Source of the DNA: Bacteroidota bacterium
GTDB taxonomy: Bacteria; Bacteroidota; Bacteroidia; Chitinophagales; LD1
Length of the DNA: 64,000 nucleotides
Direction: 5' to 3'
Assembly (NCBI GenBank): GCA_947479455.1
Contig: CANJZE010000003.1
Coordinates: 20,956 to 84,955, forward strand
Shown here: piece by piece, positions 2,957 through 36,406 of the stretch
Layout of the letters: the number at the start of each line of letters is the position of its first letter
Position numbering within the stretch: position 1 is the first letter of the stretch
Program-made: the position numbers and the translations under genes
Notes under the pieces: generated by a model
Database searches by the model: none
Told to the model about the DNA's origin: nothing
Seen by the model: only the letters and a program-made list of their open reading frames with translations

Positions 2957-3006
2957 TGTTTTTTATTTGATGAACAACACAAATTTATCTGCGCTATTAT
3001 TACGTC

Positions 3007-4344: not shown

Positions 4345-4362
4345 AACAGGCATTGTTATAAA

Positions 4363-4405
4363 CAAAAAAGTCCCCTTCAGATTTACTGAAGGGGACTAAA
4401 TTTTA
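4363..4405. terminator. Bidirectional intrinsic terminator between convergent genes
   Basis: Perfect 12-bp stem AGTCCCCTTCAG (4369-4380) / CTGAAGGGGACT (4386-4397) with loop ATTTA. It is flanked by an A-run upstream and a T-run downstream. Confidence 0.85.
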
Positions 4406-4419
4406 GTGATGGCATTCCG

Positions 4420-10400: not shown

Positions 10401-10914
10401 CTTGCACATACACATAATTAGCGCAAGTTCCTCCGGCTACAGTACTGTAGGCTTCATAATAAACAGTATATACTCTATTAGGCGAGGACCCCGTAGTTCC
10501 ATCATTAAAAAAAGTTGGCGTACAACCATAGGCAAAATAAAGGTCATCCCAATAAGCGGCAATTACATTGTTCGGAGCTGTTGAATTCGGAAGACACTGG
10601 TTAACCCATTCGGTGCTTGTACCGCCAAATGTCAATAGACCATTTGTATTAACATCTACAGTTGTATAATTATTTCCAAAGAAATTGAAAGTAAAACCAA
10701 TATTTCTAGAGTAGTCGCAGTCATCACAATCTATTGTAGAAATGGCATTTGCCGGTCGTGCGCTTAAGCTATAGGTAATTGTTGATTGTGTATAAGATGG
10801 TTGTCCTATTGTTTCCTTAGGTATAGCTACTAGTAAAGCCAAAGCCACAAAAATAATAGTTAAGTGAGTCTTAAAGGTAGACAAGATTGTTGTAGAAGTA
10901 AAATTGTTTTTCAT
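4420..10914 (-). CDS. Giant (~2164 aa) T9SS-secreted adhesin with SprB-type repeats, a PKD-like domain and a C-terminal T9SS sorting domain
   Basis: The track ORF 4420-11106 is probably over-extended. The internal ATG at 10912-10914 gives MKNNFTSTTILSTFKTHLTIIFVALALLVAIPKETIGQ, a signal/anchor. About 7-8 tandem ~80-aa repeats of the type CNGGSTGTITVTAAGGTPGYTYS...GTY.I.V.DANGC follow. A PKD-like segment is present (WEFGDNTSANGFDVVHNYTSPGVYSATLTSTN). The C-terminus resembles a T9SS CTD (IEIYNVLGQQL...YVIVRVKNNDDITTKKVFV). Confidence 0.85.
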   Translation of the reverse strand: MKNNFTSTTILSTFKTHLTIIFVALALLVAIPKETIGQPSYTQSTITYSLSARPANAISTIDCDDCDYSRNIGFTFNFFGNNYTTVDVNTNGLLTFGGTSTEWVNQCLPNSTAPNNVIAAYWDDLYFAYGCTPTFFNDGTTGSSPNRVYTVYYEAYSTVAGGTCANYVYVQVKLFETSNNIEVHLQQAYNNSSATIGIENSAGTVGYQAACNQGLTNGTAWRWTPCIGSFTSCSSDVVVNSTSATCAGAAVSYSTPTATCGLVNRTSGLASGATFPLGTTTITHTISPGGATCTFNAIVTGYGIAAEGSSLPAPTSPSGCGTGQVAVGSGATRTISISPNTYYNLSWGALPANINQVQIVSNGTGGTITGNNTNWFSGTSNSMVVQASRSSCTWVATSAVLTYNRVTPATPSAISGNSVVCSGTSNTYSVTSVTSLYNWTYPGGSPAPTGSTNSVTFSPTVGGTLTVFANNDGCVSAASSTKAITVNTLSTAPTGITGTTAYCQSVGSTSLTATGGTTGTAGVDVWYSGACGGAGGFEQDWGSQPYTTSGTTVNSTANGVLNVTSTNGDPMIVMHGIGTFAPATYKNIQIRYKVTAGTAGTAEIFFTSASLPGATGGYSVAGALISDNAWHTLNIDLSTNALYNTIGNITGWRFDWAGNTGVTMDIDFIHLGAGVLLGTGSPITVSPPVGTTTYYVNRKGACNSTTCASQVVTVYPYPTFTTTPSNILCNGGTSGTILVNVTTGTSLFRFSKDGGGTYPVVNQTSPYTFTGLSAGAYDIMIRDANGCFSVPVSTINLTQPASLPTLTETHTAVLCNGGSTGTITVTAAGGTPGYTYSKNGATGPFQVSNIFTGLAQGSYSIRVKDANGCETANTNVTITQPSALSFTTSKTDVVCFGDNNGTITLNGSGGVAPYQYSNDNGSIYNAGADPYTFSSLTPASYLVGITDANSCPTTFVSVTINEPAVLGFTTSQVDVLCNGDNTGSITVSATGGTTIYRYSKNNGLSYQLSNVFNGLTAGTYDIVVKDANNCITSAQQVTITEPTGVTFTTSLVHVLCNGDNTGSITIAAGGGTPGYEYSDDDGSNFQISNVFSTLAANIYPVKVRDANGCVTAASNIQISEPSLVTYTTSYTDVNCNGAGDGTITINGNGGVPPYQFSINNGSTFQFGPDPFTFINLPAANYMAGIRDDNGCIQGFTSITIVQPTAITFTTSQVNVFCFGGSNASITVSAAGGTGTYTYSKDNGVTFQLPNIFTGLTAGTYQIKVKDAAGCITNASSVTITQPGSGLTVTASNGSPYSTTVTANLFSNPSGGTPGYTYNWSGPASFATNPAHLLQNPTRTPTTVNMTGTYKVTVTDANGCSASAQTVMNVYDGYVWIGTTSTDWNNNSNWSFQVPDYPDDCTQKAYIQAGTPFAPTVNIPGLTVGTITLVNGASLTLNNDLILCSNLVGSVTSIVSTINGSGKLIMKSTPSIVQTLTGKSKFNAILQIDNTAGVSINTAATQIANALELKTGVVNVTASNFLVFVSNSASHSAIIDNFSPGMNGSISGAVTMQRKYDAPTSPSYKTQHYMGSPIDQPLYTAFGANGTEGRVINTLCDEKKSSANSPIGNMAKFDENWPDAAVCNLQGWYIVKTGNTENARGYSVSRGGAGILSITGNANQATSYTRTSLTNSGWSNMTLQGHRDTSGWHILSNPWLANLSLSSSGGAGMDNQVAVWQTTGPYAGGYRYYQVGFEAVNIAPFQAFLVHKTAVGGLANYTISGSDRVRTPSSVYFHSMNNDQELAINVDNTNGLRDRTIVAFNTQATDNFDAVYDGNKLWGDPDRLSLYSENNNMPMARNTLSSISNNTTIPVGFDAGLPGAFTMSFEGLNSFDATSYIMLEDRKTNTWHDVRNGNYSFTGDTTDNLDRFVLHLTPPVVINHTDATCNTLGVIHAEQVGIANWNYVVTNSNGDQISSGSLNNNNPITVNAAQGVYTITLVDNHNYTVVKQIQVNGVQVVQSSFVTSANIVEQNEDVTFTSTSTNTTNNVWEFGDNTSANGFDVVHNYTSPGVYSATLTSTNSDCNGTSTQQITVTEKATTDINSITDKSGITIWSNDNTVYVDFGKQPKVEAQIEIYNVLGQQLSSERFGRSSVYRRAFTNLEAAYVIVRVKNNDDITTKKVFVSSK
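6810..8775 (-). repeat. Tandem in-frame ~240-nt domain repeats (SprB-type) inside the giant adhesin gene
   Basis: The periodic protein motif (C.G...G.I.V...GG...Y.YS...G......F..L..G.Y...V.D.NGC) recurs 7-8 times. Boundaries are approximate. Confidence 0.7.
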
Positions 10915-11484
10915 AATCAATTTATTTAAAATTTTTAAAGGGGTTTGAAGTATATAAAGAAATAACGCTGAAAGCGCTATTATTTTTTTTGCTGATAAAA
11001 GAGGTGATGATTGGGTAATTGCAGAATTACCTTGAGGAGTAGAAATAGGATTCATAGCTGTGATTTTAAGTTTATATAAACAAATCAAAAACGCAATGAA
11101 TAGCATTTGGTAAAGCGTGTGGCGACATCGCCACTTCTACTTTGTGTTGGTCGTAAACAAATTCTAAAATATGTTTACCATAATGCCGGATGGTTCTTTA
11201 AAAACACAGCAACAAAAAATCTACAATTGATTTTTTTGTTATAACAGGGTTGTGCTTTATAATACTGAATCCTAAAAATAGTGTGTCGCTATTTCTGAAT
11301 GCCAATATATACTCTTATTTTTGAAATGTAAAGTAATGAGGCAAAAATTATTTTTTGGCCATTATTAGATTACTGATTATTTGTCTCTGTAAATAGCGGA
11401 GTTTCGTAAAAGCACACCTGTTGATAAATAATAGTTGTGAACCCCTGTGCAGGTGTTTCTTTGGGCTTCATATTTAAACAAAGT

Positions 11485-12660
11485 ATGAAAAAGTTTTGCA
11501 GCTCCTGCGGCAATCAACTTGAATTAAGCCAACGATATTGCAGCGAATGCGGTATTGTGAATCCGTTTTTTGTTCCCGCTTTTATTTTACTCTCCGATCA
11601 AAGCGATGTGCTCGAGAAACTGCGTATTGAAAAAGAAAAAATTGAAAAAGAATTGGCAGAAAAGGAGGAAAAGCAAGCTGAGTTTGTGCGTCAGGAAATG
11701 AATCGTAGAGAATTGGATGAGCACGACCGAAGAAGAAAAGAAATTTTGGAGAAGGAAATGATACTGCGCGACACGCTTGAACGAGAAAAGTTTGAAGCGA
11801 GTTTCAAAGAAGAGATTCTGCGAGTAAAAGAAGAAACAGAACAACACAAACAGGAAACGGTTGACATGTTGCGCCAAATGCGCGATGAAATTCAGCAACA
11901 GATAGAACAAGAGCATAATCGGCTGAAGCAAGAATTTGAATTGGTGAGAAAAGAACAACTTGTTCCGGAGCATGTAGATACAGCGGAACCGTCTTTAGCC
12001 AATGAGCCTGTTCAAAAGAAGAAGCCAAAGAGCAGTGGTGCTCTTCTATTATTGTTGGCAGTATTGACTGTTGGAATTGGCTTAGCCTACTTTTACTTCA
12101 CGAATATTTATACCAGCAGTTCAACTGTTTCGCAAAGTGCTGAAAAACCTTCCTCGACATTGGAGGAAACTCCAACGATCAATCATGATACATTATCAAT
12201 GGCAGAAAATGCTGCTGCCTCGGAAACAGCTTCTACAATTCCGCAGCCAATAGCCGAGGCAAGCCTTGCTGAAGCTAGTAACAATACCACTACGGAAGGA
12301 GTGAAGAAAGAAAATCGTAATTCAGTTCCTGTTACAAATACAGTTTATCACGAACCTTCTTTAACCAAACGCGAAACAGTTCCTGTACCTAGAGAAAGAA
12401 CACCCGCGATTAATGAATCAAAAGTGTTGAACGATTTGGTTGGGAAAAGAATTTCGGGATGTGGAGTTACTATCAATAGTTCAGATGAGGTGCAAGAGAT
12501 AAGTAACTTGGTTTTTGTAGAAACGTTGCCTTCGGGTTACAAAAAATATAAATTCAAAGCGAAGATTGAACAAGGAGGAGATTCATATAATGCTACGCCT
12601 TACATTTATTATTCGGCTGATGGAGGGTTTATAAAGATAGACGGCACTAATTGCGAATAA
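11485..12660 (+). CDS. Zinc-ribbon / coiled-coil single-pass membrane protein, function unknown
   Basis: The likely start is the internal ATG at 11485 (MKKFCSSCGNQLELSQRYCSECG, a CxxC...CxxC zinc ribbon). A long E/K/R/Q-rich coiled-coil follows, then a TM helix (ALLLLLAVLTVGIGLAYFYF), an S/T/E-rich linker and a small C-terminal domain. Confidence 0.6.
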   Translation: MKKFCSSCGNQLELSQRYCSECGIVNPFFVPAFILLSDQSDVLEKLRIEKEKIEKELAEKEEKQAEFVRQEMNRRELDEHDRRRKEILEKEMILRDTLEREKFEASFKEEILRVKEETEQHKQETVDMLRQMRDEIQQQIEQEHNRLKQEFELVRKEQLVPEHVDTAEPSLANEPVQKKKPKSSGALLLLLAVLTVGIGLAYFYFTNIYTSSSTVSQSAEKPSSTLEETPTINHDTLSMAENAAASETASTIPQPIAEASLAEASNNTTTEGVKKENRNSVPVTNTVYHEPSLTKRETVPVPRERTPAINESKVLNDLVGKRISGCGVTINSSDEVQEISNLVFVETLPSGYKKYKFKAKIEQGGDSYNATPYIYYSADGGFIKIDGTNCE

Positions 12661-12669
12661 CAACACTGC

Positions 12670-13911
12670 ATGAAAAAAAATCTACTATTTATTGTTCTAT
12701 CTGCCTTTTGCTTCTTTGGATTTTCGCAGGATTATTTGAACGGAAAACTGACCGATCCGCAGTGGGGAGCGCGCGAAATTTTATACGACCGAACTCAAAA
12801 CGGAATTACCTCTAATATTTTTCAAACCGTATACAAAGTGTTTGAAGAAAGCAAAACACAGATATACTCTATAACCGTAACCCACGATAGGCAAAAAGGA
12901 ATTATTCTTTTAGCCATAAAACAGACAACAGGAATTTCGAAAGGAAGCACGATTACTTACGATACAGACGAACACGGTTTAATCTTTACGAATAAAGGAA
13001 GTACAGATACTACGTTTGCAAAACCGATTTTCTATAAATATCTTCTATCATTTACTGATGCCGTAATGGATTATCCTGTTATTCATGCTGTAAAAACAGA
13101 TGATGGTAAGGTGATTGAGTTAGACCCTTTGAATAAGATTCGGTTGCGCAAACAACTTGAAGTAGTTAAAAAAATTGCCCCTCAACTTGCACTCTCAGTA
13201 AAGGAAAAACCGGAAAAGGCAACTGCCGTTACAGATGGCTTTACCGGAAATGCTTTCAATGATTATTTGTTTCTATTGCGCGATTCTGTTTACAGAATGA
13301 GCTATGATTTTACTCAACGTATTTCTGAAATGCGAAACACCATGAGTGTTGAAATTTCTAAACAATTCGGGAATCGCAAATTTGTGAGTGATGAAAAGAG
13401 CTATGCCGGTGATAAAAGAAGAGGTACCCCCGATGGTGCAGGATTGCTTGTTGAAAACGGAAATGTGTTTCAGGGAAACTTTATTGAAGGAATTTTTGCG
13501 GGTGGTGTGGCTTCAATAAATAATGATTTTTTTGAGTATTGCGGTGAATATAGTTTTGATACCATTAATGGTTTTGGTTGGTTGAAATATAAAAGTGGAA
13601 GTTATTTGCTTGGACAATTTAGTAATGGTGTATTGCAAAGTGGCACCTCTCTTTGGAAGGATAAAAACGGTGAAATGTACTTTGGTGGGGTCAAAAATAA
13701 TTTACGTAATGGTTATGGTGAATTGCGCAACTCAAATGGAGGTATGTACTGCGGGGAGTTTAAGGATGGAAAATTGGTAAAAGGATATTCGCGCGAGGTT
13801 GATCCTTTTGGCTACGCCACTTATTCAAGAATTGAAAGCAGAGGAAAATCGTCAGTTGATGCATCGGCAGCCGAAGATTTTTTCAGTTCTGTATTGAGTG
13901 CAGGAAATTAG
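12670..13911 (+). CDS. Secreted MORN-repeat protein
   Basis: Signal peptide MKKNLLFIVLSAFCFFGFSQ. C-terminal MORN-like repeats are present (YCGEYSFDTINGFGWLKYKSGSYLLGQFSNGVLQSG...YFGGVKNNLRNGYGELRNSNGGMYCGEFKDGKLVKG). Confidence 0.65.
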   Translation: MKKNLLFIVLSAFCFFGFSQDYLNGKLTDPQWGAREILYDRTQNGITSNIFQTVYKVFEESKTQIYSITVTHDRQKGIILLAIKQTTGISKGSTITYDTDEHGLIFTNKGSTDTTFAKPIFYKYLLSFTDAVMDYPVIHAVKTDDGKVIELDPLNKIRLRKQLEVVKKIAPQLALSVKEKPEKATAVTDGFTGNAFNDYLFLLRDSVYRMSYDFTQRISEMRNTMSVEISKQFGNRKFVSDEKSYAGDKRRGTPDGAGLLVENGNVFQGNFIEGIFAGGVASINNDFFEYCGEYSFDTINGFGWLKYKSGSYLLGQFSNGVLQSGTSLWKDKNGEMYFGGVKNNLRNGYGELRNSNGGMYCGEFKDGKLVKGYSREVDPFGYATYSRIESRGKSSVDASAAEDFFSSVLSAGN

Positions 13912-17262: not shown

Positions 17263-17302
17263 GGGGAATTAGCTCATTTGGCTAGAGCGCTTGCATGGCA
17301 TG
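17263..17302 (+). other. attL: truncated 5' half of tRNA-Ala(GGC), acceptor through anticodon loop only
   Basis: GGGGAATTAGCTCATTTGGCTAGAGCGCTTGCATGGCATG matches 36333-36372 at 38 of 40 positions. The sequence then diverges into non-tRNA sequence with no T-arm. Confidence 0.85.
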
Positions 17303-17412: not shown

Positions 17413-17438
17413 TAAATGTTTGACCAAATCAACGACCA
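17413..17438 (+). repeat. 26-bp perfect direct repeat, copy 1 (candidate arm-type recombinase site)
   Basis: TAAATGTTTGACCAAATCAACGACCA, identical to 36261-36286. It lies just upstream of the integrase ATG. Confidence 0.85.
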
Positions 17439-17450
17439 AAAACTACTATC

Positions 17451-18800
17451 ATGAAAAAGCTAAGAGCGTTTGCCTCCATCACTGCTATTCTAAGAACAAA
17501 CAGAAAAAATAAATATGGAGAATACACTGTTTGCATAAGGATAACTAAGGACAGAAAGGTATCCCTTCTCTCAACTCCATATTCTTCACCAAAAAAATAT
17601 TGGGATAATAAAATTCAACGCCCTAATGGGAAGCATTATGATGTTGATGAACTGGATAAGTATCTTGACGATACAATCTCTGAATTCAAAAAAATAATGA
17701 AAGAACTTTCTGCTACGGAAGATTACTATTCTGCAAAGCAGGTTGTTGATATTTATAGTGCAAGAAATCAACCCTCTGTAAAAACATCTGCACAACCCGA
17801 AATTACGTTCAAGGAATTTTATGAAAAACTTCTTAATAGAATGGAGAAAAAGGGGCAATACAAAACAAGGGAAACATATATTGCTTCTGTTGCTTGGTTA
17901 AACAAATTCAAAAAACTAGAAGACATACTGTTTACAGATTTGACCCTTACCTTTTTTGAGGAATTACTAGCCTTTATGATTAGTAAAAAAGAAGAAGAGG
18001 AAAAACCTCCGTTCAAACCAAGTACATTATTTGGCTACTTTAAAAACTACTTGGCAATAATGAGCAAGGCAGTTGCTGAAAATATAATTACACCCTCTTG
18101 CACTAATTATAAAGGATTTAAACTGTCGCAGTTTAAAGTAGCGGTAAATCTAATTGCTATTCCTGCTAGTCAAATGGTCGATATTATGACCTTGAAACTT
18201 CAGCCTAATACATCAATATGGAATAGCAGAAATTATATTGTCTTTAGTTTTTTAAGTAGCGGAATAAACTTGGTGGATATGGCAAAGCTTAAGAAAGAAA
18301 ATCTCCGTGATAGTAGAATCGAGTATATAAGGTCGAAAACTGGTGAACGGTGCGTATTTAAATTAAATCCTAAAACGGAAGAAATTCTTAAATTTTACGA
18401 GGGATACACTCACGCTGATTATCTATTTCCTATTCTTCTAAAAGATTATTCTAAAAAGCAACTCCATAACAGAGTAAAAACCGTTTCGCGAATTGTGAAC
18501 AAAGACCTTAAAGAAATTGCCCGCCAATGCAGGATAGAAAGCAACCTAACGTTTTATGTAGGACGACATACTTGTGCAACAGAACTAAAATACTCGGGGA
18601 TTCCTGATAGCGCAATTGGTGAAGGTTTTGGACATGGTTCATCTAAGTCAATAAAGAATTATCTTAAACGATTACCTGATAAAAACATTGATTTGCTTAG
18701 TGATATTCTTTACCAAAAGATAATGACCCCAAAATGTGGTGCCGATTCCGCTAAAAAAACGGTTAGAAAATTAAAGCGACCACTCGTTAAAGCAAAATAG
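17451..18800 (+). CDS. Tyrosine site-specific integrase (Bacteroidota arm-binding-domain type)
   Basis: N-terminal KNKYGEYTVCIRITKDRKVSLLST resembles Bacteroidota integrase arm-binding domains. The C-terminal catalytic region has FYVGRHTCATELKYSG (HxxR) and GHGSSKSIKNYLK (His...Tyr). The gene sits next to the att repeat. Confidence 0.85.
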   Translation: MKKLRAFASITAILRTNRKNKYGEYTVCIRITKDRKVSLLSTPYSSPKKYWDNKIQRPNGKHYDVDELDKYLDDTISEFKKIMKELSATEDYYSAKQVVDIYSARNQPSVKTSAQPEITFKEFYEKLLNRMEKKGQYKTRETYIASVAWLNKFKKLEDILFTDLTLTFFEELLAFMISKKEEEEKPPFKPSTLFGYFKNYLAIMSKAVAENIITPSCTNYKGFKLSQFKVAVNLIAIPASQMVDIMTLKLQPNTSIWNSRNYIVFSFLSSGINLVDMAKLKKENLRDSRIEYIRSKTGERCVFKLNPKTEEILKFYEGYTHADYLFPILLKDYSKKQLHNRVKTVSRIVNKDLKEIARQCRIESNLTFYVGRHTCATELKYSGIPDSAIGEGFGHGSSKSIKNYLKRLPDKNIDLLSDILYQKIMTPKCGADSAKKTVRKLKRPLVKAK

Positions 18801-18959
18801 CTAATAATCGATACAGAAACTAAAGACCCTTGCCGAATAAGGGTTTCAGCGAATCGGGCAACAAATTGGCAACAAAATGTGTCAATAGAAAATAATTTAA
18901 AGCAACACAAAGAAACTTAATTAGCCATAATATAGTGACGGTATTGAGATGAAGTCATT

Positions 18960-19871
18960 TTATACAAGCCCGTTTATTAAATGCCTTATGTCAAACATCT
19001 GTATTACAGTTCTGTTTGTTGTTACACAAAATACCCTTACTGTCAAGATGCCATTGCTGTCAATCGAATGGGTATGAATAAATTTTGCCATTCCTTTCAT
19101 CATAGGAGGAATTTCATCAAAACTGAAATAGCCGATTGGTTGGTTGATGGAACTTATATGGCTTTCTCCGAATCGAATATCATTTGAGATGGAAATTTGG
19201 TTATCAAATGATGTAGTGATGGTAGAATATTTTTTCTCCGTTGGTATTTTTGAGTTTTTGGGTATCATTATTGTAAACTTATCGTCTTTCATCCCTTGAC
19301 CTATTGAGTTTTTTAAAGTCAATTCAGACCCAACAAAATCACTTCTGCTTTTAATAATTATATCTTCATCAGAAGCTAATTGGGCATCCTCTACTATTGT
19401 AATTTGTTGTGTATCTGTACTTGCATCATCCTTAACCGTTGAAACAAGTTTACATTCTTCTGTTAGCCTTTTAAAGTCAAGGAGAAATTCGTTTGCAACA
19501 GATTCATCTTTGATTATTGTGATGTTCTCTTGATTTTTATTCTCCGCAAAGTATGTCCAATTGTAAGAACCATTTATAACTGTTGCTTTATCAATTACGC
19601 AATACTTATTGTGCATCGGATTTTCAATATCACCGAAATAGAACTTACCACCTAAGTCAATAAATTTTTGGAAGTTCAATCCATCAGGCTTGTTATTTAT
19701 AGCATCGTTCAGAACGATTAGATTGATTTTAACTTCGGGTAACATATCACACAATACATCGAACAATTCATTGCTCGTAAACCAACAGACAGCGACATTG
19801 ATTTCCGCCTTTGCAGATTTCAATTCTTTTATAATCTCTTGACGTATGTCTTTGAAAAATGGTTTTATCAT
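18960..19871 (-). CDS. PLD-family (single HKD) nuclease domain fused to an Hsp70/DnaK-like substrate-binding beta-domain
   Basis: N-terminal HKD motif MHNKYCVIDKATVINGSYNWT (H.K....D......GS.N). The C-terminal ~110 aa align by eye to the DnaK SBD-beta: IMIPKNSKIPTEKKYSTITTSFDNQISISNDIRFGESHISSINQPIGYFSFDEIPPMMKGMAKFIHTHSIDSNGILTV against [76 protein letters not shown]. Confidence 0.7.
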   Translation of the reverse strand: MIKPFFKDIRQEIIKELKSAKAEINVAVCWFTSNELFDVLCDMLPEVKINLIVLNDAINNKPDGLNFQKFIDLGGKFYFGDIENPMHNKYCVIDKATVINGSYNWTYFAENKNQENITIIKDESVANEFLLDFKRLTEECKLVSTVKDDASTDTQQITIVEDAQLASDEDIIIKSRSDFVGSELTLKNSIGQGMKDDKFTIMIPKNSKIPTEKKYSTITTSFDNQISISNDIRFGESHISSINQPIGYFSFDEIPPMMKGMAKFIHTHSIDSNGILTVRVFCVTTNRTVIQMFDIRHLINGLV

Positions 19872-19915: not shown

Positions 19916-20962
19916 TTATGTTTCGAGGTTATTGAGTAGCTTGATAATTTGCTCTGCCAAGTCATTCACTACAACGTCTTCCGTTTTGTCTATCAAGGGG
20001 AATAAGGCAAATGATATTTCTCTACTGTTGTTTTCATAAGCGGTAACATTTAAGTGGCTCGCCAATTCACGGCTTCGTTTTCTTAGTCGGTCTGTCATCA
20101 CCCATTTCGCATTATTTGAAATATCATCCCTAACGAATATCCAAAAAGGCGAGTCCGCTCGTTCAGCCCAATACTCGAATTTCAATGATAATCCTGCACC
20201 AAATTTTTCCGTTTTAAAGAAACGGGTATAACCACCGCGATGTGCGCCCGAACTGAATCCCTTTGTATCGGCAATATTTCGCTTCCTTAATTCATCTATT
20301 ACCTTATCAAGAATATCATAGTATGAGTTAATTCTCTTTGCGTACTTCGGTGATAGTTCTTCACTTTGTATCGGTAGAAAGGCATTGCTATCAATCGTAT
20401 CACAGAAGCCAATAATTTGGTCTATGTCAGAAATCAAAACCTGCTCGTTATCCTGCACCAACTGTATTTTGACTGTTTGCAAAATTTCATTCCATGTTTT
20501 TACGAGCAGATGTTTGTTGCCATTGAATACAATGGAATGCGTTTCTTGATTTGAATTGCAATTTGCTTGAAAAGTATTACCGCGCTTCTGCAACTCGTCA
20601 AAAACAGGTCTAACACGAAGCGTTGGGCATATAAAAACTAATGCAGAGTTTTCTTGAAGTCGGTTTAAGTATTCATTCGGTTGATTGTCGGTAAGTGAAG
20701 CCCAAAACTTTGCTTCTAAAAGCAACACTTCTTTCCCGTCATTATTAAATCCCGATATATCAGGTCGCTCTAATTTATCTCCTACGTTTTGTGTAGAGTA
20801 GGTTATATCTTCAAAATCTAAATTACAGTTGCTCTTTATAATTCTGTTTATCGCAAGCCTTGCAGACTTTGACCTTTGCAATATGTATGCTAACCCTTCG
20901 GATGCTATGTCCTCCTGTGAGCCTTTAATCCGCGAATAAAATTGACCTAATAGTGACTGCAT
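19916..20962 (-). CDS. PD-(D/E)xK nuclease-fold protein with an uncharacterised C-terminal domain
   Basis: Motif ...LERPDISGFNNDGKEVLLLEAKFWA (PD ... E-A-K with canonical spacing). The remaining ~230 aa are unrecognised. Confidence 0.6.
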   Translation of the reverse strand: MQSLLGQFYSRIKGSQEDIASEGLAYILQRSKSARLAINRIIKSNCNLDFEDITYSTQNVGDKLERPDISGFNNDGKEVLLLEAKFWASLTDNQPNEYLNRLQENSALVFICPTLRVRPVFDELQKRGNTFQANCNSNQETHSIVFNGNKHLLVKTWNEILQTVKIQLVQDNEQVLISDIDQIIGFCDTIDSNAFLPIQSEELSPKYAKRINSYYDILDKVIDELRKRNIADTKGFSSGAHRGGYTRFFKTEKFGAGLSLKFEYWAERADSPFWIFVRDDISNNAKWVMTDRLRKRSRELASHLNVTAYENNSREISFALFPLIDKTEDVVVNDLAEQIIKLLNNLET

Positions 20963-20972
20963 TTATTTAGAT

Positions 20973-21863
20973 TTATTTCGATGCAAAAGATTTATATTTC
21001 AATACTCTTTTCCGTAATTCTTTATAATCATTTTCCTCTCCTTTCATTTTATGTAGCATTCTATGACAGTTCGAGCAAACAGTAATTAAATCTTCCTTGC
21101 TATTTTTGACTTTCCCACGAAGTTTTGATAGTGCAGTAGTATGATGAGCCTCTGCAAATCCTCTCCCAAGTTCACCGTAAGTGTTTTGAAAATCAAAATC
21201 ACAAACCTTGCATTTAAAGCCGTCACGTAATTTAACCTCATCAGCGAGTTTTTTTGACCTTTCTCTGCGAATATGTTGCGAAACGATTTTCCTATTCTCA
21301 TATGGATAATCCTCATTCGTATTCGATTCAATTTCAAGGGCTGAAACTGTGGCTTTCATTAGCCATTCAGTCTTCTTACTTATCCTGTTTAAGAATGACT
21401 TTTGGATTCTACCATTTGTTTTAATTTCATCAAAGAAGTAGTAAGTGAAAAATTTACTCTCATAGGGTTCAATAAGAAACCTTCCGAAATATTTCTTTGC
21501 AAGTGGCTTTTCAAGCATAGTTTCACCATCAGCATCCCTAATGTATGTTGAAGAATGGTCATCCTGAAAGTTACTTGATAAACTCTCTGCAATCTTTCTT
21601 ATTCTATCAATGTCGCGACACCAATAACAGATAGATATAACAGGTCTTCCAATATTCGGGAATAAATCAATCCAAAGATGAACGCCACCAATTTTTTTTA
21701 AACGAAACATCTTAACGGAATAGCCATAGGTGTCCATTTCCTCAACTTGCAAATCATCAATTCTAATTATTCTATGGTCGCGAATTTTACTTGTTAAGTC
21801 AGATTGAATTTCTTTCGCAATATCCTTAAGAATATTTTTGTAATCACGGCTTAATCTTTTCAT
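20973..21863 (-). CDS. HNH endonuclease (McrA-like C-terminal HNH) with an unknown N-terminal domain
   Basis: The C-terminus KLRDGFKCKVCDFDFQNTYGELGRGFAEAHHTTALSKLRG...LITVCSNCHRMLH carries CxxC...HH...CxxCH. Its start overlaps the upstream stop in an ATGA. Confidence 0.75.
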   Translation of the reverse strand: MKRLSRDYKNILKDIAKEIQSDLTSKIRDHRIIRIDDLQVEEMDTYGYSVKMFRLKKIGGVHLWIDLFPNIGRPVISICYWCRDIDRIRKIAESLSSNFQDDHSSTYIRDADGETMLEKPLAKKYFGRFLIEPYESKFFTYYFFDEIKTNGRIQKSFLNRISKKTEWLMKATVSALEIESNTNEDYPYENRKIVSQHIRRERSKKLADEVKLRDGFKCKVCDFDFQNTYGELGRGFAEAHHTTALSKLRGKVKNSKEDLITVCSNCHRMLHKMKGEENDYKELRKRVLKYKSFASK

Positions 21864-22618
21864 TTTTTAAAAATTGTATTCAGCAAATGAGCAAGCCTTA
21901 GCCCACTGAACAGAATTTGCTTTTCAACTATTGGAATGTTTTTGTCGAGATACTCTTGTGATAGTCGGTTATCAGAGAAGTTATAAACCGCAGGAAGATA
22001 AGCACGGGATTGCTCCATCCATTTAAGTAAATCTGTTTCTTCAATCTCCTGCTTTGAATATTTCGGCATCAACTTCAAACAATCTTCTTTCGTGATTCCG
22101 CTTTTCTGAATCATTTCTGAATCCCACAACTTGTGTAGGTTAGTTCCTTTCTCGAAGAACGTTACCTGAACTGTATTGCCTCCTTTATCTTTGCCGTAGC
22201 CAACGTGAAGCGGTTGGTGCAAATCCCCTACAAGATGAATTAAGATTTCCAAATCGCCTTTAACGCCCCATTGCGTTCTACTTTTGTTATCGCGAAGTCG
22301 TTGAGCAACATCGGTTAATTCGTTAATGATATTATCTCCTGTGGCTTGTTTATACTGCTCTCCCTTCTCTACATTGAGGTAGTGCATTGGCTTCATGTAA
22401 TCGAATGAGTGGTCGCTACGAATTACATCCATCCAAACACTTGCTTCTTCAATACTTGTGCCTGCTAAATATTTATCTACTGAATCTTTAACCGACTTGT
22501 CGAGGAACTGATAAGCGATGGATGCAATCATCTTATGCCCTTCTGCTCCCCACGCATTTGACTTTAATGGGATGTAGAGCGAAGTAACCGTAAGCAGTAT
22601 GCAACTTAATTTCTTCAT
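21860..22618 (-). CDS. S1/P1-family nuclease with signal peptide
   Basis: MKKLSCILLTVTSLYIPLKSNA then WGAEGHKMIA (the mature N-terminal Trp/His zinc ligands), HLVGDLHQPLH and NLHKLWD. ATGA overlaps occur at both ends (22615-22618 and 21860-21863). Confidence 0.85.
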   Translation of the reverse strand: MKKLSCILLTVTSLYIPLKSNAWGAEGHKMIASIAYQFLDKSVKDSVDKYLAGTSIEEASVWMDVIRSDHSFDYMKPMHYLNVEKGEQYKQATGDNIINELTDVAQRLRDNKSRTQWGVKGDLEILIHLVGDLHQPLHVGYGKDKGGNTVQVTFFEKGTNLHKLWDSEMIQKSGITKEDCLKLMPKYSKQEIEETDLLKWMEQSRAYLPAVYNFSDNRLSQEYLDKNIPIVEKQILFSGLRLAHLLNTIFKK

Positions 22619-23004
22619 GCTTCTTCTTTAAATAATTTTCGTCCGCTTAATTCTCCGAGTATCTTTTCCATCTTTTCATATTCTGACGTAAAGGTGCAAT
22701 AACCTGCGCGAATAATTTGTTGCCTTCCACAGTGAATGTGCAGTGACCATTCTATTCCATCAGTCACGTCAGAATCCCAACTGTATTTTTCCCAAAGAAC
22801 TATTGAAGGTAACATTTCGTTAAGTGGTTTCAATTCATCATCGGCAACTAATCTCTCAATGATATTTGGTGTATGAATCGGATTGTTTAAAGGATAGTCG
22901 CTATAAGTATGGATTACTTTGTTCTTCCGATATTCGATGCACTGATGTGACCCGAAGTAGCTGCCAATTTTGAATTTGAATGAACTGATTCTAAAGTTCG
23001 GCAT
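22615..23004 (-). CDS. Hypothetical 129-aa protein, second gene of the nuclease operon
   Basis: Intact ORF translationally coupled to the S1/P1 gene by an ATGA overlap. No motif recognised. Confidence 0.5.
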   Translation of the reverse strand: MPNFRISSFKFKIGSYFGSHQCIEYRKNKVIHTYSDYPLNNPIHTPNIIERLVADDELKPLNEMLPSIVLWEKYSWDSDVTDGIEWSLHIHCGRQQIIRAGYCTFTSEYEKMEKILGELSGRKLFKEEA

Positions 23005-23007
23005 CTG

Positions 23008-23172
23008 TCAGGTTTTGCTGAATATCAAAACCGCTCTAATAATCCCGCAAACAAGAATGCAAATAAGCCCGCCAAAAACTATAAACCTTCCTATCAGTTC
23101 TTCTTTGGTGTATTCACCGCCATCGGGTTTCGGGTAAATCAGAGAGTAAAGGTTGGAAAGTTGTCGTTTCAT
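23008..23172 (-). CDS. Small (54 aa) single-TM protein, not in the ORF track (below its size cut-off)
   Basis: Manual translation gives MKRQLSNLYSLIYPKPDGGEYTKEELIGRFIVFGGLICILVCGIIRAVLIFSKT. Its stop (23008-23010) lies 3 nt before the ATG of the 129-aa gene. Confidence 0.45.
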   Translation of the reverse strand: MKRQLSNLYSLIYPKPDGGEYTKEELIGRFIVFGGLICILVCGIIRAVLIFSKT

Positions 23173-23218
23173 GTTTAGAAAAAAGAATCAATAAGTTTAG
23201 TAATCGTGAATCACCAAA

Positions 23219-23731
23219 TCAAGGTTTAAGATATTTTTGATAATCCACTTTATCCTTTTTCTTCTTCTTTAATGCGTTATATTCTTCGGTAGCAGTAACA
23301 GCAATCCGAACCCAAATTGGGGGACAATGACTTTGAACTTTATTGAACGCCCTTCCCAAATCTTTAACGGGTAGCTTGTCCAATTTTAAGTAGCCAATGT
23401 ATTTGTAGAAATATATTTTTTGGTCTAACTCCTGCGTAAGATTGTTATGGCTTGCACCTACCCAAAAACTTTTTGTAAATATTTCTTTAGGTGAATTTCT
23501 TAGAACTTTATCAAAATAGAAAATTGCACTTTCATAGTCTTTGGCAATGAAGTAATCTACTCCCTTATTATAGTTCTCAATCCAATCATTTAAACGTTGC
23601 TGTTCATAAAAATCTAAGCCCTTATTCCAAGAACTATCAGTTGCAATTTTTTGAGGTGCATCCGTTGGACTTTGGCTAAAGCATAAAAAGCTGAAAACAC
23701 AGAGAAAATAAATGGGAATTACTTTTTTCAT
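23219..23731 (-). CDS. Secreted TPR-like small protein
   Basis: Signal peptide MKKVIPIYFLCVFSFLCFSQ. TPR-like helices are present (YNKGVDYFIAKDYESAIFYFDKVLRNSP). Confidence 0.5.
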   Translation of the reverse strand: MKKVIPIYFLCVFSFLCFSQSPTDAPQKIATDSSWNKGLDFYEQQRLNDWIENYNKGVDYFIAKDYESAIFYFDKVLRNSPKEIFTKSFWVGASHNNLTQELDQKIYFYKYIGYLKLDKLPVKDLGRAFNKVQSHCPPIWVRIAVTATEEYNALKKKKKDKVDYQKYLKP

Positions 23732-23753
23732 TTAAATGGTATTTTGAGTAAAT

Positions 23754-24002
23754 CTAAAAACGTTTCAACTCCGTTATATCAATACACGCCAAATACTTTT
23801 CCAATCTTTCGCCTTGTTTGAATGGCGTTACTTCCGATAGTTCTGTTTGCACCAAAACTACTTCGACATAAAAGCCATAAAGAGTATATAGGTTATATGC
23901 ACAATCTTCAATCACTGCGTTTGAAATAAACTCTCCTTTATCCCAAAGTATCTCTGCCCGTTCAGCAGTATCCAATAAAATGAATTCATACATTGATAGC
24001 AT
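23754..24002 (-). CDS. Hypothetical 82-aa protein
   Basis: ORF only; same strand and close spacing with its neighbours. Confidence 0.4.
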   Translation of the reverse strand: MLSMYEFILLDTAERAEILWDKGEFISNAVIEDCAYNLYTLYGFYVEVVLVQTELSEVTPFKQGERLEKYLACIDITELKRF

Positions 24003-24033
24003 ACTATTACATCAATCAAGTATTAACTAATAA

Positions 24034-25011
24034 TCAAATTGAAAATGCTTTCTGCAAAACTCCGTTTGAATTATATCCTTTCGTCTTGTTTGTAAAATAC
24101 TCCAGCACCTTTACCGTATCGCTATTAGTGAGTGATGTTTTGATTACGAATGAGTAAATATCTTCCCAACGAGTTCGGTCAAATTTTCTTTGTCCTGTCG
24201 CAATGATATGTGCGCCAAAGTCTTTTGCAATAGTTCCCTCTCGCCCTTCTAATACAAGATTGTAAAGATAAAAGTCAAGATTCATTTTATCCGCAATCCA
24301 AGTTCCAAGTAACCAAAACCGCATCAGTTCATATTTTTGGTCTTCCACTACGTCTTCATACTTACTTCTGAAAACTTTCGAGAACCAATTACCGCCTCCT
24401 GAAACATATTTTTTGGAAGACGTTTTGTGCTTTTCTAAGGCTTCACCTGTACCCGATGTTTTATTTCCTGATAGCACTTTGGCTTCTATAAAAAATAAAC
24501 CGATGTCGGTAATAACAATTATGTCAGGTTCGGAACCTTGTTTAATGGTTTCAACAAATTCAATTCGTGCTTTATTTAACCAAGACCATTGAGATTTTTC
24601 ATTCGGTGAATAAGACCATAAAATAAGTTCACTGTATTTTATCGGCTTACCTATTAGGTCGGATAGATAATCTGACAATAGGTTGTTTCGTTCAAGATAA
24701 CGGAACACATTCCAACTTACAGCGTCTTCGCTATTATTACTTTCAATGCGACTTTCCCTTTTCACTTTACTGATTTCGTTCAACCGCTTATCATCGTCAA
24801 TATCTATCCAAAGCAAATTATCATGAGGCTTCTCATAAATAAACGCAGATGGATAAACATATATCTTATGGTTTGGGCATTGAAAAGTGACAGGTAATCT
24901 CAACTCTTTTTTTTGGCGTCTTGCAACCTTATGATTACAATCTTTAACGGGACAATCAATTTCTGTTGTTGTAATCGAAAGATTTTCTTTCAAGTCATTA
25001 TATCCGTACAT
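24034..25011 (-). CDS. Putative PD-(D/E)xK restriction-endonuclease-like protein with an N-terminal Cys/His zinc-finger-like segment
   Basis: CPVKDCNHK...FQCPNHK (Cys/His pairs), then NSEDAVSWNVF... and SEPDIIVITDIGLFFIEAKVLSG (PD ... E-A-K). It is divergent from the Type ISP gene. Confidence 0.55.
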   Translation of the reverse strand: MYGYNDLKENLSITTTEIDCPVKDCNHKVARRQKKELRLPVTFQCPNHKIYVYPSAFIYEKPHDNLLWIDIDDDKRLNEISKVKRESRIESNNSEDAVSWNVFRYLERNNLLSDYLSDLIGKPIKYSELILWSYSPNEKSQWSWLNKARIEFVETIKQGSEPDIIVITDIGLFFIEAKVLSGNKTSGTGEALEKHKTSSKKYVSGGGNWFSKVFRSKYEDVVEDQKYELMRFWLLGTWIADKMNLDFYLYNLVLEGREGTIAKDFGAHIIATGQRKFDRTRWEDIYSFVIKTSLTNSDTVKVLEYFTNKTKGYNSNGVLQKAFSI

Positions 25012-25320: not shown

Positions 25321-28300
25321 ATGGCAATTACCTTCAATCAAATACTCGAAAAGTATAGAAAGATTTCTTTTTCAGAACGTGATAAAGGCGACCGTTTTGA
25401 AAGACTAATGCAAGCCTACTTGCTTACTGACCCCAAGTATTCTAACAAGCTGAAAAAGGTTTGGATGTGGAGTGAGTTTCATGGCAAGAATGATTTAGGT
25501 GGCGGTGATACAGGAATAGATTTAGTGGCTTTAACTAATGAAGGTGACTATTGGGCAATTCAGTGTAAGTGCTTTCAGGAAAGTTCTGTAATAGATAAAC
25601 CTGCTGTCGATTCTTTCCTTTCAACTTCGAGTAGAGAATTTAAAAACGAAGAATTAAAAACTGTTTCCTTCTCTCACCGACTTTGGATTTCAACTACGAA
25701 CAAATGGGGAACCAATGCAACGGAAGCAATAAAAAATCAGAAGCCACCTGTTACCCGACTAAACCTATATGACTTACAGGAAGCACCTGTTGATTGGGAA
25801 AAATTAGATAAGGGAATTCATGGTGAAGCATCTCGTACACCAAAGAAAACTTTACGGCTGCATCAAAAAGAAGCATTAGATAAAACACATGAACATTTTA
25901 AAAATGCGGAGCGCGGTAAACTTATCATGGCTTGCGGAACGGGAAAAACATTTAACTCACTTCGCATTGCTGAAAATGAAACTAATGGAAAAGGCTTAAT
26001 ACTTTTTTTAGTTCCTTCCATTGCTTTGTTGGGGCAAACTTTGCGCGAATGGTCATCAGATGCTAATGAACCAATCAATGCCATTTGCATTTGTTCTGAC
26101 CCTGAAATTTCAAGAAAGAAAACCAAGAACGAAGACAACGATAATTTCAGTGTGGTGGATTTAGCTTTACCCGCTTCTACAAATACAAAAGATATTCTTC
26201 ATCAGTTCCAACGCATTAAAACCAAAGGCAACTCGGGATTAACTGTTGTCTTTTCTACCTACCAATCCATTGAAGTTATTGCCCGCGCTCAAAAGGAATT
26301 ACTTAAAAATGGTTTCAGTGAATTTGATTTAATTATTTGTGACGAAGCACATCGTACTACGGGTGTTTCTTTGGCAGGAGAAGATGAATCCGCTTTCACT
26401 AAAGTTCACAACAACGATTTTATAAAAGGGAAAAAGCGTTTATACATGACTGCTACTCCTCGTTTGTATAATGATGATACAAAGAGCAAAGCTGCGCAAG
26501 CTGATGCTGTTTTGTGTTCAATGGACGACCCAAAATTATACGGTGAAGAAATTTATCGCATTGGTTTTGGTGAAGCAGTAGAGAGAGATTTGCTCACTGA
26601 TTATAAAGTTCTGATACTAACCCTTAGTGATAAAGATGTTCCGCCTGCCGTTCAAAAAATGATTGCAGATAAGGAAAGTGAAATCAATACCGATGATGCT
26701 TCTAAACTTATCGGTTGTATAAATGCTTTGTCAAAACAGATTTTAGGTGATGAAGGAATTATAAAAGCAAGCGACCCCGAACCTATGCGGAGAGCGGTTG
26801 CGTTTTGTTCAAGCATTGCTGTTTCAAAAAAGATAACAGCTACTTACAATACTGCCACCGATGCTTATATCAGTTCATTGCCAACAGATAAAAAGGATGA
26901 AATGGTTTCAGTTGCTTCCAAACATATTGACGGCACTATGTCAGCTCCCGAACGTGATGAATTATTGGGTTGGTTGAAAGAAGATTTCGATAACAACGAA
27001 TGTCGTGTCCTTACCAATGTTCGTTGTTTGAGTGAGGGTGTTGATGTGCCTTCCTTAGATGCAGTTATGTTTCTTTCTGCACGAAACTCACAGGTAGATG
27101 TAGTGCAATCAGTTGGTCGTGTGATGCGTAAATCAGAAGGGAAAAAATACGGGTATATTATTATACCTGTTGTAGTTCCTGCCGATGTTGAAGCTGACAA
27201 AGCCCTTGATGATAACGAAAGGTATAGAGTGGTTTGGACGGTTCTAAACGCACTCCGTGCGCATGATGACCGATTCAATGCTACGGTAAATAAAATTGAA
27301 CTCAACAAAAACAGACCCGCACAAATTTTAGTCGGCAGACCCGAATATTCTTGGGAAGATGGAAAGCCCGTTTCAGGTAGCAATGAAACAGGAACAAACA
27401 AAGACATCAGTAAACAAATGGCTTTGCAATTTGAGCAATTGCAACACGTAGTGTTTGCCCGTATGGTTAATAAAGTTGGCGACCGCAGGTATTGGGAGCA
27501 ATGGGCGAAAAGTGTAGCTGAAATTGCAGAACGACAAGTTGAACGCATCAACCGTTTAATCACCGAAGACAAAAAACATCAAAAAGCCTTTGCTAATTTC
27601 TTGGGTGGGTTACAAAAAAATATCAACCCGAGTATTACACAACAGGAAGCGGTGGAAATGCTTTCGCAACACATCATTACCAAACCTGTATTTGAAGCAT
27701 TGTTCGATGGCTATTCGTTTGTAAAGAACAATCCTATTTCGGTTTCTATGCAAACGATGTTGGATTTACTAGAAGAACAAGCTATTGAAAAGGATTTAGA
27801 TGTCCTACAAAAGTTTTATGATTTCGTAAAAAGAAATGCGGGCGGTATTGATAATGCTAAAGGAAAACAAGACATCATTATTAGGCTATACGACAGTTTC
27901 TTTAAGACTGCTTTCCCTAAAATGGTGGAGAAACTTGGCATTGTTTATACACCTACGGAAGTGGTAGACTTCATTATTCATTCGGTGAATGATGTATTGA
28001 AAAAAGAATTTGACCGCAGTATATCAGATGAAAACATTCACATCCTCGACCCTTTTACGGGAACAGGAACTTTTGTAACTCGATTACTGCAAAGCGGGTT
28101 GATTAAGAAAAAAGACCTCCAACGTAAATATCAAAATGAAATACACGCGAACGAAATTGTGTTGCTTGCCTATTACATAGCCGCAGTAAATATTGAAAAT
28201 GCTTATCACGATGCAATGGGAGAAATTGACTACCAAGCATTCGATGGAATTTGCTTAACCGACACATTTCAATTAGGCGAAAGCGATGAAAGCGAAAAAT

Positions 28301-36260: not shown

Positions 36261-36286
36261 TAAATGTTTGACCAAATCAACGACCA
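36261..36286 (+). repeat. 26-bp perfect direct repeat, copy 2 (candidate arm-type recombinase site)
   Basis: TAAATGTTTGACCAAATCAACGACCA, identical to 17413-17438. It lies 46 nt upstream of the tRNA. Confidence 0.85.
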
Positions 36287-36332: not shown

Positions 36333-36406
36333 GGGGAATTAGCTCATTTGGCTAGAGCGTCTGCATGGCATGCAAGAGGCGACCGGTTCGAATCCGGTAT
36401 TCTCCA
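36333..36406 (+). tRNA. tRNA-Ala (anticodon GGC), hybrid attR copy
   Basis: Manual cloverleaf: acceptor GGGGAAT/ATTCTCC with a G3:U70 pair, D-arm GCTC-ATTTGGCTA-GAGC, anticodon loop ATGGCAT, T-arm ACCGG-TTCGAAT-CCGGT, discriminator A. 74 nt, no encoded CCA. The anticodon stem TCTGC/GCAAG has one G-U pair and one C-A mismatch. Confidence 0.85.

Follow-up and report, generated by a model that had tools for sequence, protein, structure and literature searches.

A phospholipase D-like domain joined to an ATPase-less, lid-less Hsp70 clamp in defense islands of Bacteroidota

We analyzed a 64,000-nucleotide stretch of a Bacteroidota genome assembly (GCA_947479455.1, contig CANJZE010000003.1, positions 20,956 to 84,955 of the forward strand), which we call the window, meaning this whole stretch. 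Here, we focus on one of its genes, which encodes a phospholipase D (PLD)-like domain of the nuclease type followed, in the same chain, by the beta-sandwich half of an Hsp70 substrate-binding domain (SBD-beta). We refer to the fusion as PLD-SBD, and its features are collected in Table 1. The open reading frame (ORF) in the program-made ORF list has exactly the boundaries given in the original prediction, but its strand needs correcting. The gene lies on the minus strand, with its ATG at 19871 and its stop codon at 18960-18962, and encodes 303 amino acids (aa); translation of the plus strand over the same interval gives many stops. The identical protein (100% identity) is called on 21 public contigs. 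An AlphaFold2 model built with 48 homologs (mean predicted local distance difference test [pLDDT] score, 88.5; predicted template modeling [pTM] score, 0.53) comprises a PLD alpha/beta domain, a low-confidence linker at residues 156-176, and an eight-stranded beta-sandwich. We see no signal peptide in the sequence, nor any transmembrane segment or amphipathic anchor. As shown below, a PLD domain and an Hsp70 clamp lacking both ATPase and lid, joined in one chain, are a real and recurrent architecture.

By motif and profile match, the N-terminal half is assigned to the PLD superfamily. The Pfam family PLDc_2 (PF13091) aligns with residues 13-136 over profile positions 1-131 of 132 (E = 2.5e-21, 76.3 bits, cut-off 27). 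A phmmer search of the PDB matched residues 12-139 to Zucchini/MitoPLD (E = 9e-10 to ~1e-9), and the other PDB sequence matches of this half include Nuc (1byr, E = 3e-6) and NucT (E = 0.019). Among NCBIfam models, NucT scores best (E = 6e-9), with a weak match to ClsB (E = 0.0027). The closest PDB entries carry the deposited name "mitochondrial cardiolipin hydrolase"; these are Zucchini/MitoPLD, whose structures have been read as single-strand nucleases of the piRNA pathway. The defense proteins DrmC and DpdK are also among the closest characterized relatives, and ClsB-type lipid enzymes score far lower. Because the nearest characterized relatives, Zucchini, Nuc, and NucT, are nucleases, we infer that the PLD half acts on nucleic acid.

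The catalytic stretch is intact (H87-N-K89-YCVI-D94-KATVIN-G101-S102-Y-N104). Its residues H87, K89, D94, G101, S102, and N104 are invariant across 48 aligned homologs, as are E110, N113, E115, and N116, indicating that the catalytic residues are under purifying selection. The PLD domain is also the conserved half of the family: mean pairwise identity is 55% there, against 33% in the SBD and 26% in the linker. There is one HKD motif and one PLDc_2 stretch per chain. In Nuc, BfiI, and Zucchini, a single-HKD PLD domain pairs with a second copy to form one phosphodiesterase active site; by analogy, PLD-SBD would form a homodimer with one active site across two chains.

The C-terminal half matches the Hsp70 clamp by profile, sequence, and structure. 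The Pfam HSP70 family (PF00012) aligns with residues 190-280 over profile positions 394-483 of 599 (E = 6.3e-11, 41.6 bits, cut-off 20.6), and phmmer matches residues 181-285 to an isolated DnaK SBD in the PDB (9p7u_A, E = 1.2e-10). Foldseek places the modeled domain on the DnaK SBD crystal structures 1dkx, 1dkz, and 3dpo at 0.9 Å over ~110 columns (E ~1e-11 to 1e-12); across Hsp70/DnaK SBDs, identity is 27 to 30% and the root mean square deviation 0.7 to 0.9 Å. The rest of an Hsp70 is missing. No part of the protein matches HSP70 profile positions 1-393, which cover the ATPase (nucleotide-binding) domain (NBD), and the hydrophobic VLLL-type interdomain linker of Hsp70s is absent. There is also no helical lid (SBD-alpha), since the chain stops 4 to 9 residues past the last SBD strand, and AlphaFold2 predicts no helix of four or more residues beyond residue 149. 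NCBIfam DnaK models score 37 to 50 bits on the protein against cut-offs of 648 to 1019. Because the ATPase and the lid both proved absent on testing, the protein is not an Hsp70 chaperone.

These results uphold the original prediction on all points of architecture: a single-HKD, Nuc-type PLD domain at the N terminus, a linker, an Hsp70 SBD-beta at the C terminus, and neither NBD nor lid. The landmarks that had been aligned with DnaK by eye are all present (KNSKIPT at 205-211, DNQ at 223-225, GE at 235-236, G247..P255..G260-M261, and ID..GIL.V at 270-278), and the two comparisons that it had proposed, a profile search for the C-terminal part of PF00012 and a superposition on the DnaK SBD, gave the matches described above. 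It had also called the linker between the domains acidic. This is true of the subclade to which the window protein belongs, whose members are ~300 aa long and have a short acidic linker, but not outside it. Most family members are 326 to 350 aa long and have a conserved element of three helices between PLD and SBD. The model of one such long-form member (P0032) is rigid throughout, with a pLDDT of 93.2 and a pTM of 0.83, against a pTM of 0.53 for the window protein. We considered whether the long-form helical linker might stand in for the missing lid; in comparisons with structures that have a lid, the Foldseek alignment covers only the ~110 columns of the beta-sandwich.

PLD-SBD is a family of some size. 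Searching 5.8 billion protein clusters, we recovered 174 relatives; among the matches listed, 89 of 120 have both Pfam domains, and most others align end to end. Public names of the homologs are "Hsp70 family protein," "phospholipase D-like domain-containing protein," and "hypothetical." Scanning one genome per GTDB species, we found a relative of the PLD core in at least 570 genomes. Among the best 80 loci, all full-length PLD-SBDs are from Bacteroidota, and they span the Flavobacteriia, Chitinophagia, Cytophagia, Sphingobacteriia, and Bacteroidia, the last including Prevotella and Bacteroides. Three further PLD proteins (L056, 8001-9086; L062 from Bacteroides fragilis, 1597-2634; and L058) carry C-terminal halves without a Pfam HSP70 call that nonetheless, by eye, resemble a divergent SBD-beta, with IIPKGTKIP, GEN, and G.F motifs. 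These look-alikes mean that the fusion may be commoner in gut Bacteroidales than profile matches suggest. Scaffold 4 of Paucihalobacter ruber carries two copies of PLD-SBD ~24 kb apart (L016 and L047), the second of them a truncated ORF of 183 aa, which suggests duplication and decay.

The family is scarcely represented among mobile elements in the collections that we searched. No full-length homolog was found in a collection of 72,556 plasmids, many of which carry PLD-like genes. Among the 15 listed of 33 matching records in the phage and plasmid collections, a single full-length homolog (L093) is from the phage collection. It lies on a 5.5-kb contig from a fecal metagenome (MT838246.1, "UNVERIFIED: Bacteriophage sp.") whose further ORFs include an Mrr-like restriction endonuclease and others that resemble nucleases, and the contig looks like a bacterial defense or restriction island misfiled as phage. 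Also among the matches listed, one phage or plasmid sequence matches the PLD half, and the other matches to the SBD half are DnaK genes, of bacterial type in two records; matches from Lak megaphages, in unannotated records, were taken to be phage DnaK. A library of viral protein folds contained no protein with both PLD and SBD domains.

To describe the peptide-binding cleft, we aligned 134 family members with the Escherichia coli DnaK SBD and compared them with 116 other Hsp70-type SBDs drawn from an SBD-only search of 1.84 billion representatives. The DnaK numbering is that of a reference sequence whose register matches the 1dkx coordinates. The equivalents of DnaK G400, P419, T428, D431, Q433, G443, N451, and G468 are kept both in the family and in the other Hsp70s, and those of N432 and L484 are also conserved in PLD-SBD. 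The family thus retains the backbone-binding loop T428/D431/N432/Q433 (T-x-x-D-N-Q), which in DnaK forms hydrogen bonds with the backbone of the client. These four residues, which in Hsp70s grip the peptide backbone and give the cleft loops their shape, are the best-conserved positions of its SBD. The equivalents of F426 (V, L, or F in the family, I218 in the window protein), I472, and T403 remain hydrophobic. Positions that have lost the most constraint include L454, G455, D481, and I483, which we take to be part of the surface on which the DnaK NBD docks. This loss is consistent with a domain no longer under the control of an ATPase. It also argues against one arrangement that we considered, in which the SBD docks in trans on the ATPase of the host DnaK, since L454, D481, and I483 would be among the contacts.

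The PLD core has also acquired other partners. In other lineages, the same core, at 40 to 50% identity, is fused to TPR, vWA-TerF, cold-shock, or J domains. The cold-shock domains are N-terminal, and one carrier is a Methanobrevibacter metagenome-assembled genome (MAG). The J-domain fusions (PLD-J) are ~460 aa long and consist of the PLD core, a long coiled coil, and then the J domain. An HPD motif is found at 15 of 36 PLD loci without a recognized SBD and is invariant in all 12 of the proteins aligned, of which nine have a Pfam DnaJ match (best E = 7.5e-9); hhalign places the motif on helices II and III of E. coli DnaJ. At nine of the 15 loci a TPR gene adjoins PLD-J, often with overlapping stop and start codons. 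PLD-J hosts are Bacteroidota, MAGs of the Geobacter/Desulfobulbaceae type (Desulfobacterota-like), and one Anaerolineae MAG. PLD-SBD and PLD-J share a linker motif (h-I-V-E-x-A ... D-E-D-h-x-x-Q/K).

SBDs without an NBD exist elsewhere but are rare. The SBD-only search returned mostly ordinary Hsp70s or fragments, and two high-ranking proteins with several matching stretches (P0125 and P0134) proved to be Ig/SprB-repeat proteins and were rejected as compositional artifacts. Among the remainder are ATPase-less proteins of several kinds: P0124, of 200 aa, joins a J domain to an SBD, P0131 combines kinase, DnaJ_C, and SBD, and P0152 is membrane-anchored, with transmembrane segments at its N terminus and a coiled coil besides the SBD. 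Two more (P0150 and P0197) have an SBD-beta without ATPase behind N-terminal regions of no recognized type, and P0133 is an entire Hsp70 joined to a TIR domain.

PLD-SBD genes were found in a defense-island setting at every locus examined. Neighbors include Type I restriction-modification (R-M) systems (L005, L006, and L010), DarT/Macro (L008), GmrSD, Type III R-M, and DndD together at one locus (L009), and DndB (L011). When genes within 4 kb were clustered at 44 loci, no universal partner emerged, nor did any conserved small neighbor fit to be an antitoxin or immunity gene. The lack of a universal partner makes PLD-SBD look self-contained, a sensor-effector in one chain, in the subclade of the window protein.

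Two sister subclades differ in this respect. In them, PLD-SBD is the last gene of a tight retron-type operon, with its start codon 1 to 3 bp past, or overlapping, the preceding stop codon. The order starts with a WYL regulator in divergent orientation. Next come a reverse transcriptase (RT), with a HisKin-conflict domain either fused to it or beside it, a ~210-aa protein that lacks any known domain, and an iREC-REC protein; PLD-SBD is last, often with a TOTE pair (PADLOC candidate PDC-M16A/B) after it. We found this operon at six loci (L009, L026, L033, L037, L095 at 2962-12716, and L096), and a seventh (L036) has a variant gene order. The last, translationally coupled slot is the place usually held by a toxic effector. 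The RT is of retron type (best PADLOC match RT-Protease_XI, E = 1.6e-100) and is probably a member of the "TXI_C2like" WYL-RT lineage, which a 2026 preprint reports from Bacteroidota only. The survey in that preprint examined two genes on each side of the RT and reported no PLD, Hsp70, or kinase, and the 13-type retron classification has no such system. Our full-text literature search found no description of the operon. The window gene and its closest relatives (L001, L005, L013, L094, and the P0003 contig) are placed otherwise: there is no RT gene in the island of the window, and its PLD-SBD copy lies outside any operon of retron type.

The window copy sits in a mobile defense island of ~19 kb (Table 1). 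An intact tRNA-Ala(GGC) gene marks one end, and the other carries a copy of the 5' half of that tRNA, matching exactly over 27 nt before two mismatches and adjoining a tyrosine integrase on its left. A second direct repeat of 26 nt lies just inside each end. The island also holds a Type ISP R-M enzyme, a resolvase, and a replication-initiator-like helix-turn-helix (HTH_36) protein. PLD-SBD is the last gene of a same-strand run that begins with a 325-aa NERD-like protein and continues with small ORFs (one of 129 aa, and one TPR-like), an S1/P1 nuclease with a signal peptide, a 296-aa HNH protein, and a 348-aa PD-(D/E)xK-like protein (PD...EAK motif, weak PDDEXK_4 match). The 348-aa gene is still present beside a relative of 80% identity, where an unrelated 335-aa gene takes the place of the HNH gene (L094), and it is gone at identities of 63% or less. 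A scan for terminator consensus sequences found three sites, where 2.6 are expected by chance, one of them downstream of PLD-SBD. A promoter scan found fewer sigma-70-like sites than in shuffled sequence; the tool has no Bacteroidota promoters and is silent on the transcription unit.

Table 1. Coordinates of PLD-SBD, its parts, and its surroundings in the window, with PLD-J loci on other contigs
Feature	Position	Strand	Basis or remark
PLD-SBD fusion, complete ORF, 303 aa plus stop	18960..19871	-	ORF list; both Pfam domains above gathering thresholds
N-terminal PLD-like domain, aa 1-140, Nuc/NucT/Zucchini type, one HKD	19452..19871	-	PLDc_2, E 2.5e-21
HKD catalytic motif HNKYCVIDKATVINGSYNWT, aa 87-106, HxK(x)4D(x)6GSxN	19554..19613	-	Sequence
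Interdomain linker, aa 141-183, acidic, predicted disordered	19323..19451	-	pLDDT <50 for residues 156-176
C-terminal Hsp70-type SBD-beta, aa 184-299, no lid after	18975..19322	-	Pfam HSP70, Foldseek, DnaK SBD match
Terminator-like hairpin, ~115 nt downstream of PLD-SBD stop	18826..18844	-	Consensus scan; weak, suggestive only
Nuclease-rich gene array upstream of PLD-SBD, same strand	19916-25011	-	
Type ISP enzyme, 1607 aa, divergent (Mrr_cat_2, helicase, methyltransferase, Type_ISP_C)	25321-30144	+	
Tyrosine integrase, within island	17451-18800		
Intact tRNA-Ala(GGC), island end	36333-36407		
Copy of tRNA-Ala 5' half, ~40 nt, other island end	17263-17302		
Direct repeat TAAATGTTTGACCAAATCAACGACCA, 26 nt	17413-17438 and 36261-36286		
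PLD-J loci (other contigs)	L070-L074, L079-L086, L088, L091		Example L079, 7992-9383; neighbor 9373-10650

What might a nuclease do with an Hsp70 clamp? We propose, with a probability of about 0.45, that PLD-SBD is a defense-island nuclease that is controlled or aimed by its clamp when the clamp binds a specific peptide. The protein would be a cytoplasmic, single-polypeptide nuclease of islands directed against mobile elements, in which the PLD domain pairs with a second copy, building one nuclease site. The SBD-beta would serve as a nucleotide-independent clamp for an extended peptide from one or a few specific proteins. In the operon-embedded relatives, the ligand may be a partner protein; for the stand-alone form in the window, it could come from phage or host. 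Filling of the clamp would then control the nuclease, either by uncovering the active site of the PLD dimer, which in BfiI is occluded by the C-terminal DNA-binding domains and the linker, or by recruiting the enzyme to where it acts. Once activated, the nuclease would degrade nucleic acid and halt the invader or the infected cell. Points in favor of the proposal are the invariant catalytic residues, the nuclease relatives of the PLD half, the defense-island settings, the terminal slot in the operons of the sister subclades, the retained backbone-binding loop, the modular exchange of partner domains on the same PLD core, and the precedent of bNACHT25.

Several results weigh against this proposal. 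In the cleft, three hydrophobic positions of DnaK have changed: I401 (I, L, or V in the other Hsp70s) is E, A, or L in the family and Q192 in the window protein, V436 (V or I) is C, S, or M and I228, and I438 (I, V, or F) is S, T, or I and N230. The central hydrophobic pocket thus appears unconserved, and peptide binding of the DnaK kind is not guaranteed. We also looked for the signature of an arms race at the cleft and rejected it, as contact positions show no excess variability over the rest of the SBD relative to other Hsp70s (Mann-Whitney p = 0.19). The model of the window protein gives PLD and SBD no confident mutual placement at a pTM of 0.53, so occlusion of the active site is without structural support. 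The location in defense islands is circumstantial evidence, and matches to known defense proteins are weak and confined to the PLD half (PADLOC: DrmC, 2.1e-6; DpdK, 8.7e-5; MkoC, 1.1e-4). On the cleft itself, the alignment is consistent with a groove still shaped for an extended peptide, with a side-chain preference that is altered and probably specific. Because the loop is kept and the pocket is now small or polar, a specific peptide ligand seems likelier than generic unfolded protein.

The same pocket bears on the idea in the original prediction of an effector gated by an unfolded or foreign polypeptide. Developed into a model, it would have the SBD keep a DnaK-like, promiscuous affinity for exposed hydrophobic stretches, sense proteotoxic load, and guard proteostasis. 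In that case, the clamp would be filled during infection by a burst of non-native phage polypeptides, or when host DnaK is hijacked or titrated, and the nuclease would thereby be switched on. Both the affinity and this trigger strike us as unlikely, although the model has several points in its favor. Isolated, lid-less DnaK SBD-beta constructs fold and have been solved alone with and without peptide (1dg4, 1q5l), lid-truncated BiP oligomerizes (7a4u), and the equivalents of F426, I472, and T403 are still hydrophobic. The PLD-J sisters, with their invariant HPD, tie the same nuclease core to the Hsp70 cycle, and bNACHT25, which requires DnaJ for phage detection, is a precedent for a bacterial immune sensor served by the Hsp70/Hsp40 network (PMC12169576). 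However, three of the residues that form the leucine pocket of DnaK are replaced throughout the family by small or polar ones, and the window protein adds K195/S221 as its arch pair to Q192, I228, and N230. A promiscuous clamp would also risk constant activation by nascent host chains, because without an ATPase bound clients would not be released, and a dedicated partner in the retron-type operons is a more economical ligand. A broader form of the idea, that client recognition of the Hsp70 kind was coupled to the nuclease core on two or more occasions, in PLD-SBD and in PLD-J, and that both read the state of chaperone clients during infection, we hold to be a doubtful conjecture. Alternatively, the SBD may bind peptides no longer and instead bind nucleic acid, or serve as a purely structural or oligomerization module that places the PLD dimer in a BfiI-like manner. 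A polar pocket would suit this, as would the cold-shock (single-stranded DNA- or RNA-binding) domains found on the same core elsewhere, the rigid long form, in which linker and SBD are fixed to the PLD (pTM 0.83), and the reported binding of AU- or C-rich RNA by Hsp70/DnaK through NBD and SBD (PMC11090510). We rate it as rather improbable, as the strongest conservation in the SBD is at the backbone-holding T428, D431, N432, and Q433, most other partners of the core (TPR, vWA, and J) bind protein, and neither a basic surface nor a known nucleic acid-binding motif is evident in the SBD sequence.

Two further explanations concern the nuclease half and its setting. PLD-SBD might have no role in defense, acting instead as a toxin or maintenance function of an integrative element, or as a housekeeping nuclease of DNA uptake or turnover that travels in islands. 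Genes for an integrase, a resolvase, and a replication-initiator-like HTH protein do accompany the window copy in its island, and the first member of this PLD clade, Nuc, is encoded on a plasmid. Yet the 44 loci lack a conserved antitoxin- or immunity-like small neighbor, the 72,556 plasmids have no full-length homolog and the listed phage matches only the doubtful L093, and R-M, Dnd, DarTG, GmrSD, and retron-type genes recur beside PLD-SBD in unrelated genomes, all of which makes a non-defense role quite improbable. We give still less credence to a phospholipid-modifying enzyme, cardiolipin hydrolase- or synthase-like, that acts on membranes. The deposited names of the top PDB matches and the weak ClsB match (E = 0.0027) would be explained, but Nuc and NucT are matched as well, the sequence offers nothing that would hold the protein at a membrane (neither signal peptide nor transmembrane segment nor amphipathic anchor), and a single HKD in ~140 aa is the minimal fold of nuclease-type PLDs.

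The proposal of a peptide-controlled nuclease can be set against systems already described. BfiI consists of a Nuc-like PLD dimer with one active site, a linker, and a C-terminal B3-like DNA-reading domain that restrains the site until a ligand is bound. It is the nearest mechanistic analog of PLD-SBD, with the same domain order and logic, but its C-terminal domain reads a DNA sequence, whereas that of the window protein is the Hsp70 peptide-binding beta-sandwich; the PDB search with the window protein returned no sequence match to BfiI. Nuc (of the Salmonella plasmid pKM101), NucT (Helicobacter), and Zucchini/MitoPLD share the ~140-aa PLD domain with one HxK(x)4D(x)6GSxN motif and an expected homodimeric site. 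Unlike the window protein, they have no C-terminal ligand-binding domain, and Nuc and NucT are secreted or periplasmic, while Zucchini is membrane-anchored. The clamp is a beta-sandwich homologous to the engineered lid-less SBD-beta fragments of DnaK (DnaK 393-507; 1dg4, 1q5l) and keeps the cleft loop. PLD-SBD differs from complete Hsp70s such as DnaK in its changed central pocket and in the absence of ATPase, VLLL linker, and lid, and because these three are absent, no ATP-driven client cycle is possible.

Among defense systems, DrmC (DISARM), DpdK (Dpd), and MkoC have a PLD-type effector in a defense setting, and none has an SBD. We rule out that the window protein is one of these: its scores fall far short of family level (NCBIfam: 21 bits for DpdK, cut-off 100; 15.5 bits for DrmC, cut-off 133), and no partner genes of DISARM, Dpd, or Mokosh-type systems are adjacent to the gene, whose neighbors are unrelated. 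Hsp70-derived modules are found alongside nucleases in CoCoNuT (McrBC-related) systems, where Hsp70 NBD/SBD units are fused to McrB/McrC-type proteins (PMC11090510), and in GTPase-centered conflict systems, where Hsp70 components are encoded beside GTPases and tubulins (PMC7159879). Those modules keep the ATPase with the SBD; Kaur et al. describe one copy with the ATPase but without the peptide-binding domain, the opposite truncation to PLD-SBD (PMC7159879). PLD-SBD and bNACHT25 would be alike as antiphage nucleases that sense through the Hsp70/Hsp40 network, but bNACHT25 is an NLR-related STAND NTPase that uses the host DnaJ in trans (PMC12169576), while PLD-SBD has a chaperone-derived domain built in. 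A full-text literature search, whose coverage of subscription journals is thin and which is not proof of absence, found no description of the PLD-SBD fusion, and neither NCBIfam nor PADLOC has a curated family for it. Together with the names in public records, this agrees with the original prediction that the architecture had not been described. A sensor or adaptor fused to a nuclease in a defense island is a known theme; the choice of an Hsp70 clamp as the putative sensor is unprecedented.

The Hsp70 field treats SBD-beta as inseparable from the ATPase, and the PLD-SBD family shows the clamp as a free-standing recognition module. The family offers a set of natural pocket variants for studies of specificity, and it adds a candidate sensor-effector, missing from PADLOC, NCBIfam, and the papers that we searched, that is abundant in Bacteroidota, whose defense systems are under-explored. 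It also links to two more undescribed arrangements, the RT-histidine kinase-receiver operons and the pairs of PLD-J-domain and TPR genes. Taken with the DnaJ dependence of bNACHT25, it raises the testable idea that bacteria have repeatedly come to sense infection by way of chaperone-type client recognition. If PLD-SBD and PLD-J do read the state of chaperone clients, they would represent innate sensing by chaperone mimicry or the guarding of proteostasis, with an ATP-independent Hsp70 clamp as the receptor. The isolated SBD-beta would then be a natural, evolvable scaffold for peptide recognition, in which pocket variants set the ligand, and a peptide-gated nuclease, if real, may prove a useful tool.

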